Of a stretch of 64,000 nt of DNA, positions 36,601 to 49,647 are shown in pieces. Every line of letters begins with the position of its first letter. Within the stretch, counting starts at the first letter, position 1. Below the pieces are notes generated by a model, which saw only the letters and a list, made by a program, of their open reading frames with translations, searched no databases and had not been told where the DNA came from. Source of the DNA: Eledone cirrhosa (lineage: Eukaryota); contig OZ024751.1 in assembly GCA_964016885.1 (NCBI GenBank), positions 17,236,001 to 17,300,000 of the forward strand, read 5' to 3'. Made by a program: the position numbers and the translations under genes.

Positions 36601-36658
36601 ACTGCTATATATATATTTCGATGATACCCATTGAATGGCTATGACCTCGTCAGGCAGT
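36601..36658 (-). ncRNA. Type I hammerhead ribozyme (PLE-type) with intact core
   Basis: Minus strand: ACTGC-CTGACGA-GGTCATAGCCAT TCA ATGGGTATCATC-GAAA-TATATATA-TA-GCAGT. AATAAA follows 1 nt downstream and TATATAA lies ~10 nt upstream. Confidence 0.8.
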
Positions 36659-45104: not shown

Positions 45105-45165
45105 TTTCATTTACCAGTGGTTTCTTAAAAGCAAACAAATGTTGCTTTCAATCATCAGAATGAAA
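45105..45165 (-). ncRNA. Type I hammerhead ribozyme, left arm of the palindrome
   Basis: Minus strand: TTTCATT-CTGATGA-TTGAAAGC AACATTTGTTT GCTTTTAA-GAAA-CC ACT GG-TA-AATGAAA. Confidence 0.82.
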
Positions 45166-45258
45166 AAATCCTGGTGTATTTATTGGCATTGGATTTTAAA
45201 AACCATTGGATTTTAAAAGCTTTTTTAAAATCCAATGCCAATAAATACACCAGGATTT

Positions 45259-45319
45259 TTTCATTCTGATGATTGAAAGCAAAATTTGTTCGCTTTTAAG
45301 AAACCACTGGTAAATGAAA
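45259..45319 (+). ncRNA. Type I hammerhead ribozyme, right arm of the palindrome
   Basis: TTTCATT(45259-65), CTGATGA(45266-72), 8-bp stem II TTGAAAGC/GCTTTTAA, GAAA(45300-03), CCACTGG, TA, AATGAAA. GUA cleavage site. Confidence 0.82.
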
Positions 45320-47182
45320 TAATTGCATTATGTTGTTTATTACATAACTATTAAGCTCTGTTACCTACATAGAGCACTCTTTTTTCCTGGACCTTTCCGA
45401 CGGAATTACTTCATTCACACACACACATATATATATATGTTATGTGTATGTGTGTGTGTTGGAGTTACATCGGTTTCACAGGTTCTAGTTTCTCGAACAA
45501 CGGAACTTCCTGCTCGTGAAATTAACGTGCACGTGACTAAGCATTCCACAGTCACGTGTACTTTTAACGTCCATATTTGGGAGAATCAGCAGGACACAAT
45601 GGACGACAAGCCTGTCCCATTTGAATTACAGGCATCATAGAAATACATTTCTGGATTTCAGATTCAGCTGCATTTGAGGTTAAATTGAAAGAAAAATAGC
45701 AAAATTTCCTTTATTTTCTAATTTGAAACAGGTTTAAAAAAAATACGATGTATTTGATAAAATCTTCCTAACAGATGAAGTTTAATCAGAAAAATAGATT
45801 TGAATAAAAAAAAAAATTTCTATAGTGCTCCAGCATTTCTATCATGGTAGTGCTCTATCTATATGTTACTAACAGTCTGTTATTGCTTGCTTGCTAGTAT
45901 GTAATGTAATACACCCAAAAGGGCGCATAATGGGAAAATACTTTGAAATGAAGTTGCCCCTGAAATGGGAATACAAATGAAATAAAACAAGTTATGCGTA
46001 AATCGGACACCGGGTCCCGAGTTATGGGGTTTTTCCGGGTACCTTCATAAACAAAGAGAGAGAAAGATAGAGAGGAAGAGATGGTGGTTGTGAGAGAGTA
46101 GATTGAAAGAGAGACTAGAGAGAGAATGGAAGGGAGAGAGAGCTGGTGCTGATGTTGTGTATATATATATATATGTGAGTGTGTGTATATATATATATAT
46201 ATATGTTTGTGTGAGTGTATGACCAGTGCATATAGATCACAGACACCCACATATATACACACACACACATATATATATGTATAAACACACACACATATAT
46301 ATACATACACATACGTATATATATATGGGCCTTCCAGTTCCTTTTCACATTAAATACACGGCTGTGTATATTTTAATTATTTAAAAATTATTTTTAAGTG
46401 AACATGATTTTTAAAAGATATTTTGAAATGAACGTGACTCGATGGATCACAGGTGGTCTAGTATGTGATAAAACCTTCCTAACAGATGATGTTTACTCAG
46501 GAAAATAAATTTGAATAAAAAAAAAAAAGGATTATATAGAATTTAGAGGCTTGTTCCAGAATTTCTATCATTGTACTGCTCTAGAGAATGTGAAATTGTA
46601 ACAATGACAGAAACTATTGTCAACGTAGTACATGGTAATATTTGTTAATAGATGTTTTTGTTTAAGTGATCATTAGAATTTAAAGAAGGCTATATTTATT
46701 TTATTCTGTTCTTTTTTTTATAATTAGATTTACAATTTGATAATTTAATAATAATGTGCAACCTATATTTATTTATTTATTTATTATTATTTATTTTCGT
46801 TGTTCTATATGAAATCTTTTCATTGAAGATTTTTCAAATAAGGAATAGGGAAATAATCAATTGACTTAAAATGTAAAAATGTTCCTTCTGAAATAAATGC
46901 ATTCAAGTAGAAGAACATAATTATCTAACCTATGCAATATTTAATTGGCAAAATATTCGCATCAACATGTTGTAGACTTTTATCATATTACCCATGTCAG
47001 CTTAATCTATTGCCAATTCTAAACACTATATAGTAACAATAATTGAATTAGCTTCATAGGTGTTTTAGTAGCAAAACTGATGTTATTGCATTCCACTGGC
47101 ATAGAATTTGGTTACAAGTTTTCATAATAATACATTTGACCATGCGGCAAACACATCGTGTTAGATTTGTCTGGGAAATAAT

Positions 47183-48831: not shown

Positions 48832-48867
<36 letters not shown>

Positions 48868-48871
<4 letters not shown>

Positions 48872-49055
48872 AAAAGATGAAATCGAAAATGCAGTCTTGT
48901 TTTTAAGAAAATATATATATTTAAAAAAATATATATATTTTTTTAAAATAAGACGCCAGTTGCATTTTCGATTTCATCTTTTTTTCTTTATACTTTCACT
49001 CGTGTAGGACACCTCGGTTATTTTTCATTTTGTTAAAAAAAAACCTCTCTTTCTA
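48868..49055. mobile_element. Family D PLE extreme terminus with an inverted duplication
   Basis: 48930-49050 is the reverse complement of 27130-27245. 48868-48920 is an inverted partial copy. Confidence 0.8.
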
Positions 49056-49209
49056 ATATATATATATACATATATATTAGTTTGTTAGCCTCATATATAC
49101 GGCTGTTATTTCTAGCAGTACGGTTATGAGGCTAGCTAGAAACTAGGAACCATGTGCGTTACACAGTCTTTTAAATTATTTAGAAGTGAAGCATATCAAT
49201 TTGTCCCTG

Positions 49210-49338
49210 GATGTTTACTGAAGAGAGCAGGACATGATATTCCTTACACTTTTTCATCTCGAAACATATTTGGATTTTAAAGTTTAAACTTATCTACGGA
49301 ACAGGTTTGATTTTGAAATTTAAATGTGTCTAAACATC
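49210..49338 (+). ncRNA. Full three-stem type I hammerhead ribozyme with ~27-bp stem III and GUC site
   Basis: Stem I GATGTTTA(49210-17)/TAAACATC(49331-38). CTGAAGA at 49218-24. Stem II is closed by GAG/CTC. GAAA at 49261-64. Stem III pairs 49265-91 with 49303-28. GTC at 49328-30. Confidence 0.85.
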
Positions 49339-49565
49339 ATGGCCATTTGGCAATACAGTTCGTCTTTGTTGATTTATTATTTTAAATCGATATGGACAAA
49401 CTGTAATATTATAATTAGTATACTTCATTCTGACTAAATTCTCTTTTGCAATATAAATACAGGTATGTTGGTATTTGTGTTTCATCATATATATTAGTTT
49501 ATGCACGGCTCAGAAATATTTCTTTCTTTGAGCTAATTTCATTGTAAAAGAATTCATTACACTTA

Positions 49566-49647
<82 letters not shown>

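Follow-up and report, generated by a model that had tools for sequence, protein, structure and literature searches.

At positions 49210-49338 of a 64,000-nt stretch of the Eledone cirrhosa genome (contig OZ024751.1, positions 17,236,001 to 17,300,000 of the forward strand; hereafter the window) lies a hammerhead ribozyme motif whose long stem III departs from perfect complementarity almost only by G·U pairs. The question raised by this locus is what kind of element carries the motif, whether its RNA can be expected to cut itself and what has produced the one-sided pattern of changes in the stem. The explanation that we prefer, with a probability of about 0.7, is that this is the type I hammerhead of a likely retrozyme, i.e. 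a non-autonomous Penelope-type retroelement, in which G·U pairs of stem III are tolerated and a further helix would activate cleavage through its near part and damp it through its far part.

Inspection of sequence and fold identifies on the plus strand a complete type I hammerhead, predicted to be self-cutting, with three stems and open at stem I (Table 1). The 8-bp stem I, the canonical core, the G-C pair closing stem II, the GUC site and the 27-bp stem III that a first-pass annotation had reported are all present at the positions given there, and every base required in the core (C3 U4 G5 A6 N7 G8 A9, G12 A13 A14 A15, U16 H17) is found in the copy of the window. Stem II has 3 bp, G49225-C49260 and two further pairs, and closes a 30-nt loop. 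Stem III is composed of 21 bp, the bulged U49285 and 6 bp, with no mismatch within the 27 pairs other than seven G·U (49267, 49272, 49273, 49278, 49282, 49284 and 49290); its tip, missing from that first description, is a C(UACG)G loop (49294-49299), which we take to be an extra-stable tetraloop. In a 27-row alignment of genomic copies, stem I shows changes on both sides at four of its eight pairs, and 98.8% of the stem II cells and 96.7% of the stem III cells are paired; since the rows were chosen by hammerhead patterns, core and stem II lean towards conservation in these counts, which also include one row (L161) with foreign upstream DNA, dropped for a 26-row recount. Several copies (L165-L173) have lost the middle pair of stem II through T, C or G in place of A at the position of 49226. 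Folding of 49210-49338 gives z = -4.98 on the plus strand, with none of 200 shuffles as good, and z = -0.49 on the minus strand. In comparisons with Rfam nothing in the window scores at or above a gathering threshold, and the 14 matches with E ≤ 10 in 49040-49600 include no hammerhead family; the long stem III and the loop II inserts are probably responsible.

Table 1. Features of the repeat unit and of its hammerhead, in window coordinates
Feature	Position	Strand	Basis or remark
Single 5'-truncated unit, subfamily A, ~30 nt short of full	49086-49568	+	alignment to 30 genomic copies
5' hairpin of the unit	49086-49135	+	conserved among subfamilies in predicted folds
Upstream/loop II helix, 5' strand, before stem I	49182-49209	+	duplex energy, covariation
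Stem I, 5' strand	49210-49217	+	GAUGUUUA, 8 bp; changes on both sides at 4/8 pairs
Catalytic core CUGAAGA (C3-A9)	49218-49224	+	consensus as in the text of PMC3088659
Stem II, 5' strand	49225-49227	+	pairs with 49258-49260; closing pair G49225-C49260
Upstream/loop II helix, 3' strand, in loop II	49228-49253	+	pairs with 49182-49209
4-nt linker (49254-49257) and stem II 3' strand CUC	49254-49260	+	
Core GAAA (G12-A15.1)	49261-49264	+	
Stem III, 27 bp	49264-49329	+	7 G·U and bulged U49285, followed by A·C 49292/49302 and the C(UACG)G cap
GUC triplet	49328-49330	+	predicted cut 3' of C49330
Stem I, 3' strand	49331-49338	+	UAAACAUC; pairs with 49210-49217
Downstream hairpin	49354-49405	+	G·U/Watson-Crick swaps between subfamilies
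3' branched fold	49446-49545	+	contains a hairpin also marking distant sister families
(TA)n run, 3' end of the insertion, likely target site	49566-49617	.	

The hammerhead belongs to one copy of a young, dispersed, non-coding repeat of ~520 nt. A first look at the 3.0-Gb genome gives 1,577 candidates for the 171-nt hammerhead region; the 40 that were scored yield 43 matches at 98-100% identity, and at least three other places are identical in this region, so the locus, initially singled out as the best candidate for activity, is not special. Pattern searches return 704 genome matches for the segment from core to GAAAC (control 1), 842 for the full hammerhead (control 17), 1,812 for the stem III tip with up to three mismatches (control 0) and 2,578 for the 3' hairpin (control 0), the last one catching sister families too. 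Homology among copies extends from 49086 up to 49502 or 49568, and TA repeats follow. Head-to-tail units measure 506-545 nt (~510-523 nt in subfamily A), and tandem arrays of 2-4 units with intact cores are found at five loci (L115, L117, L119, L129 and L162); element sequence is present on both strands at 41 of 73 loci. The longest ATG frame of the window unit has 52 aa and none exceeds 59 aa in the three-unit array L117; the G+C content of the window unit is 30%, below the retrozyme limit of 45%. Being a lone unit ~30 nt short at its 5' end, the copy of the window could not itself yield a unit-length circle.

The unit is also strongly folded. The consensus reaches -87 kcal/mol on the plus strand vs -47 kcal/mol on the minus strand, the plus strand folds better in 11 of 11 units, and circular folding gives z = -6.8, -3.3 and -3.0 in the three units tested; G·U also outnumbers A·C in the whole-unit fold (44+6 vs 11), but the model used permits G·U, and we do not take this tally as proof. 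The loop of the 5' hairpin (49086-49142) is complementary to the GCUAGAAA stretch that comes after it in subfamilies A, D and G, a complementarity absent in B and C, and a second pseudoknot is possible there. A little upstream of the unit, at 48862-48992, lies a short palindromic element, found also at another locus (L003).

Sister families sharing the 3' half have a stem III of 6 bp (L237), 7 bp (L268), 8 bp (L246) or 13 bp (L260), compared with 27-29 bp in families A-I; the 13-bp form resembles the long one minus a 36-nt tip set between two similar short repeats. The conserved feature is thus not the length of stem III; what persists is the helix between the 5' flank and loop II. In the family tree a clade E/H/A/C/F/B is well supported and the base is open. 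At core positions 3-6, nine of ten distinct copies of family J/M (e.g. L260, L266, L268, L244 and L250) read CAGA instead of CUGA, and an unrelated hammerhead motif (L261) has CAGA as well; this variant is not listed in the section 8 text of PMC3088659. A satellite-like array at C18:11568000-11587800 (L293, L294) contains at least 37 units of 538-539 nt, arranged in a three-unit higher-order repeat, in which all the cores are broken (CUGAUGU); thus some spread occurred without a working ribozyme. The CAGA cores of J/M and the broken cores of this array count against the explanation that we prefer.

Other motifs of this kind were observed along the way. Two loci (L239, L276) carry unrelated hammerhead-like motifs with a long stem II. 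In the window itself, 45108-45345 contains an inverted pair of minimal type I hammerheads with palindromic stem III (cores at 45266, plus strand, and 45158, minus strand), which is a separate Penelope-type repeat, with the same motif at L157; a weaker hammerhead-like match is found on the minus strand at 36653, with a stem I of 5 bp and a stem III within a TA run.

Beside stem III the repeat has a second helix, absent from the first-pass annotation: the 28 nt located 5' of stem I pair with loop II, in the segments 49202-49209/49228-49234, 49193-49198/49235-49240, 49189-49191/49243-49245 and 49182-49188/49247-49253. The duplex has an energy of -18.1 kcal/mol vs -6.8 ± 2.2 for shuffled sequences, none of 500 being as good. 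In the 26-row recount the pair 49208-49229 covaries (UA/AU/UG/GU/CG), and the pairs 49196-49237 (UA/CG) and 49206-49231 (CG/UG/UA) change jointly; the subfamilies are related and the covarying cells represent few independent events. Among 11 copies, duplexes formed by strands of the same family have a mean energy of -19.4 kcal/mol, vs -13.3 kcal/mol for strands of different families, close relatives of the A clade being interchangeable. The helix is kept across related families with a length of 14-22 bp, and the distant family K retains 21-22 bp (z = -6.0) with largely different letters. It is missing where foreign DNA lies upstream (z = -0.5 and 0.0) and in unrelated hammerheads (z = 1.4, -0.2 and -0.6), the unrelated motif L261 being borderline (z = -2.3); in several older copies the helix is weak (four rows, z = 0.1 to -1.9).

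A Watson-Crick pairing that links stems I and II, as in pseudoknot-stabilised hammerheads, is thus present, and its possible role depends on geometry. At 2.8 Å per pair and 7 Å per step, ignoring bending at bulges, the full helix of 21-23 bp rises ~59-64 Å, and the 4-nt linker leading to stem II spans ≤35 Å; fraying of three end pairs costs ~2.6 kcal/mol and leaves 18 bp (50 Å), to be spanned by a 7-nt linker (56 Å). Modelled in this way, the near 7-18 bp could serve as a cleavage-speeding pseudoknot, which the full 21-23 bp could not. Since the full helix is too long for the linker and 18 bp with a 7-nt linker just fits, the helix likely activates through contacts of its near part and acts in its far part as a brake or lock: the 7-14 pairs nearest to the core would act as a cleavage-speeding stem I/II pseudoknot, and the far end would probably fray by 2-3 pairs before stem II closes, damping cleavage.

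The same geometry could suggest that the whole helix is a lock and not an activator, holding the strands of stem II apart within one unit, so that a unit would be cut only by the core loop of its neighbour in a multimer and a monomeric circle would be protected. The length of the full helix (59-64 Å, with a linker of ≤35 Å) favours this arrangement, together with the short linkers of families A, D, I, J and K (4-8 nt for helices of 19-22 bp), the preference of the consensus fold for the upstream/loop II hairpin over stems I and II, and the intact junction retained by the templates. Conversely, the low cost of fraying three end pairs, after which 18 bp fit a 7-nt linker, the bending that bulges could allow, the longer linkers of subfamilies C and G and the one or two units found in most insertions argue against it, and we consider a pure lock unlikely. 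Equally tentative is the more complete scheme in which the ~20-bp helix would control the hammerhead by displaying the core in a hairpin loop and keeping stem II open in one unit, multimers being cut by swapping halves and the circle being locked. If true, it would represent a route to dimer-only cleavage through stems I and II, replacing the one through a palindromic stem III, and it would show how an animal retrozyme circle escapes self-cutting.

Cleavage as a monomer, expected from the outset for this hammerhead, is plausible, as the long stem III removes the usual obstacle and would spare the palindromic-loop dimer used by minimal Penelope hammerheads. In the sections of the literature dealing with comparable motifs, fungal Penelope hammerheads with a large helix III cleave singly (PMC4209133) and most invertebrate retrozyme hammerheads are reported as monomer-cleaving (PMC7761336), so that such behaviour is not rare. 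Counting against monomer cleavage are the only 3 bp of stem II. In the nested energy model the active fold of 49200-49345 is ~5 kcal/mol less stable than one in which the core is tied up, the probability of the active fold is <0.01 in six of seven copies and 0.13 in the seventh, and stem II still slips when loop II is blocked; this evidence is weak because such models ignore the tertiary contacts of the core. The outcome would probably depend on the amount of upstream sequence included: the construct 49200-49345, suggested for a cleavage assay, leaves out most of the conserved helix, which starts at 49182. On a genomic scale, ~800-900 intact motifs could cut host transcripts running through them.

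The proposed cycle would start with repeat RNA, predicted to self-cut into unit lengths, and would end with its copying back into TA repeats by the reverse transcriptase of another element, on a circular or uncut template. The 3' ends of the arrays lie in AT-rich spots at 160-199 or 220-279 nt past the cut site in 119 of 130 cases, and 117 of 130 run into TA repeats. The 5' ends (160 in all), a sample biased by the collection of its loci through hammerhead patterns, are evenly spread, with no peak at the cut site. An unbiased count made on the 3' strand of stem I finds the G at -3 of the cut site kept in 946 copies and not in 22, the latter comprising 17 point mutants (six in one array), one deletion and four copies starting ≤2 nt from the site; these four compare with a rough expectation of 6-10 under even truncation, and a pile-up of 5' ends as a genomic trace of cleavage was discarded. 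Insertions almost always read through the cleavage site, and the template is likely circular or uncut: as reverse transcription begins 3' of the ribozyme and crosses the cut site, we infer that it needs a ligated circle or an uncut multimer.

The insertion ends do not look like LTRs. The repeat shows the Penelope-like traits of 5' truncation, inverted 5' pieces and TA-repeat targets. Inverted 5' pieces and TA targets are among the features described for Penelope-like elements in the relevant text of PMC8557442, and the insertion pattern matches both these elements and the retrozyme model as outlined in parts of PMC7229834 and bioRxiv 10.64898/2026.07.22.740005. No autonomous partner with a shared 3' end was found at the sampled loci, a small share of the copies, with flanks of mostly 0.7-3 kb. 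A frame beside L005/L139 was rejected as a partner because it is a nested insertion seen at one of 20 loci; its two frames match no Pfam family, and we take them to be Penelope-type from their motifs. The frames beside L206, L207 and L212 were discarded as well, having no common flank, and a further frame is found near L284. The genome also harbours an abundant young Penelope-type element (L141-L160), with 91-100% protein identity among the 150 scored of 60,183 candidates; a minimal hammerhead that belongs to this element follows the frame at a distance of ~1 kb.

The repeat might be the terminal repeat of an autonomous Penelope-like element with its coding part outside the sample, and the same target, truncation and inversion pattern, together with the many Penelope-type frames of the genome (150 of 150 scored matches; 60,183 candidates), would agree with this. 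Yet the units stand head to tail with no frame in between, and the loci searched (mostly 0.7-3 kb of flank, for a small share of the copies) have no common coding flank, which makes this origin improbable.

The composition of stem III remains to be explained. The initial claim that its changes are all G·U and none A-C is correct for the 27 pairs, with their seven G·U and 1-nt bulge, and fails at the 28th pair in register, A49292/C49302, which is an A·C mismatch and is G-C in sister family I; seven G·U out of seven has p = 0.008 under even transitions, and seven out of eight, including pair 28, p = 0.035. Variation was examined in 94 copies, taken irrespective of stem III from the first 100 of the 704 listed matches, all on contig C1. 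Six subfamilies differ at nine stem III pairs: A-U is replaced by G·U at 49268, 49279 and 49281, and at 49280 in small groups; G·U is replaced by Watson-Crick pairs at 49282 (G-C), 49284 (C-G) and 49267, where one subfamily has U-A and two have U·U; U·U occurs at 49266, and one subfamily has two U·U at the stem's base. In the largest subfamily (39 of 94 copies) A·C is the commonest state at 49276 (C·A). Both this A·C and the two basal U·U count against the preferred explanation. Expressed as substitutions, the subfamily-level changes are A>G at 4/18 A-U pairs, U>C at 2/7 G·U pairs and G>A at 1/7, and tolerance alone is enough to fit them. The G·U pairs are likely ordinary mutations tolerated in active master copies, since G·U keeps the RNA helix and A·C does not. 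The variants at 49279, 49281 and 49326 recur in contigs of three sequencing runs from one sample.

Copy-specific changes from Watson-Crick pairs look neutral: six give A·C, two G·U and seven other mismatches, with subfamily E (three copies) excluded. The 22 stem III variants include two from L106, truncated in the stem, and two from L063, which has a 10-nt insertion; removal of L106 leaves five A·C, two G·U and six other. An excess of A·C in single copies is expected, as these changes followed insertion. Thus A-C pairs as frequent as G-U pairs among paralogues, which the first-pass annotation had named as contrary to its interpretation, are seen for changes of single copies and not for those shared by subfamilies. 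Of the two origins that it had offered, selection on the plus-strand fold is borne out by the compensatory changes at 4/8 pairs of stem I, by the G·U/Watson-Crick swaps and by the fold energies of the unit (-87 vs -47 kcal/mol).

The other origin, A-to-I editing of the stem fixed as G in master copies through reverse transcription, is not supported and is rejected as the main cause. A 27-bp A/U-rich stem would be a plausible ADAR substrate, and the replacement of A-U by G·U that separates subfamilies at 49268, 49279 and 49281, with the small groups at 49280, goes in the direction of editing, as does the A at 49273 in family J. However, copy-specific A>G is not in excess in the stem (2/1568 vs 18/7662 outside, p = 0.88; U>C 5/2177), and the subfamily changes fit tolerance alone. 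In four of the seven G·U pairs (49272, 49282, 49284 and 49290) an unchanging G faces either C or U; of the remaining three, one comes from U·U, one is invariant between subfamilies and one (49273) is possibly A>G. The pair at 49290 is C-G in sister family I, whereas J carries G-C at the position of 49272 and A-U at 49273; only one of the seven Gs is A in an outside sister family. In addition, families E, D, G, I, J, M and K carry U at 49326, so that this letter is found in E and everywhere outside the E/H/A/C/F/B clade. Because RNA selection accounts for the G·U pattern, editing is not needed, and we regard it as quite improbable. It is scarcely credible that stem III is a decayed DNA inverted repeat without RNA function in a family that spreads as DNA, as the broken core of one long array could suggest, in view of the strand-asymmetric folding, the compensatory substitutions that stem I and the upstream helix show, the 5' truncation and the fixed 3' ends.

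The class to which this element belongs, that of retrozymes and Penelope hammerheads, is known, and its architecture is a variant; neither the repeat family nor an animal retrozyme with a flank/loop II helix of ~20 bp was found described in the open-access literature, where supplements and figures may show similar motifs. As far as the texts on metazoan non-LTR retrozymes go (PMC7229834; bioRxiv 10.64898/2026.07.22.740005), the likeness is extensive: a type I hammerhead in each short, low-G+C, non-coding tandem unit, dispersed monomers to multimers, a strongly folded unit and Penelope-like elements as proposed partners. The unit of 506-545 nt is longer than the ~220-390 nt reported there for coral, mussel and axolotl, and, unlike the metazoan retrozymes described in those pages, the present repeat has a stem III of 27-29 bp and a ~20-bp helix between 5' flank and loop II. 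The parts of PMC7229834 on circular RNAs state that in most animal retrozyme circles no self-pairing blocks the ribozyme, with an exception for some of those from mussels, and leave open how these circles avoid self-cleavage. The plant LTR retrozymes and viroid circles treated in the same source are similar in that a complementary stretch may hold the ribozyme inactive in the circle; their motifs, for the plant elements, are of type III and reside in LTRs, whereas here loop II is the partner of the complementary strand, and both the core and the stem I strand stay unpaired.

Penelope-like hammerheads, according to the descriptive sections of PMC4209133 and PMC6765202, share with the present one the type I topology, the location upstream of the 3' end, the TA targets and the inverted 5' pieces. 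In animals they usually have a palindromic helix III of 1-2 bp and act as dimers, in contrast with the 27-bp stem III of the window; a large helix III is described in the same sections for fungal and protist Penelope hammerheads, and the Serpula motif cleaves singly. Two minimal motifs with palindromic helix III are present in this genome too, the pair at 45266/45158 of the window and that of L143-L160. Unlike Penelope-like elements, the repeat has no coding frame linked to it at the sampled loci. Measured against the animal hammerheads covered in these texts, a stem III of 27-29 bp is unusual, as is a covarying helix 3-4 times the length of the hammerhead pseudoknots described; the sister families, with a stem III of 6, 7, 8, 13 or 27-29 bp, varied linkers and cores and the helix in all of them, offer a natural test series. 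Finally, the closest parallel for the helix is the pseudoknot reported by Perreault et al. 2011 (PMC3088659), whose text places it in ~40% of hammerheads of all three types and considers it necessary for fast cleavage. In both cases a strand next to stem I pairs with the stretch located after the 5' strand of a short stem II; the examples given there have 4-6 bp, whereas here 14-22 bp are formed, nearly using up loop II.
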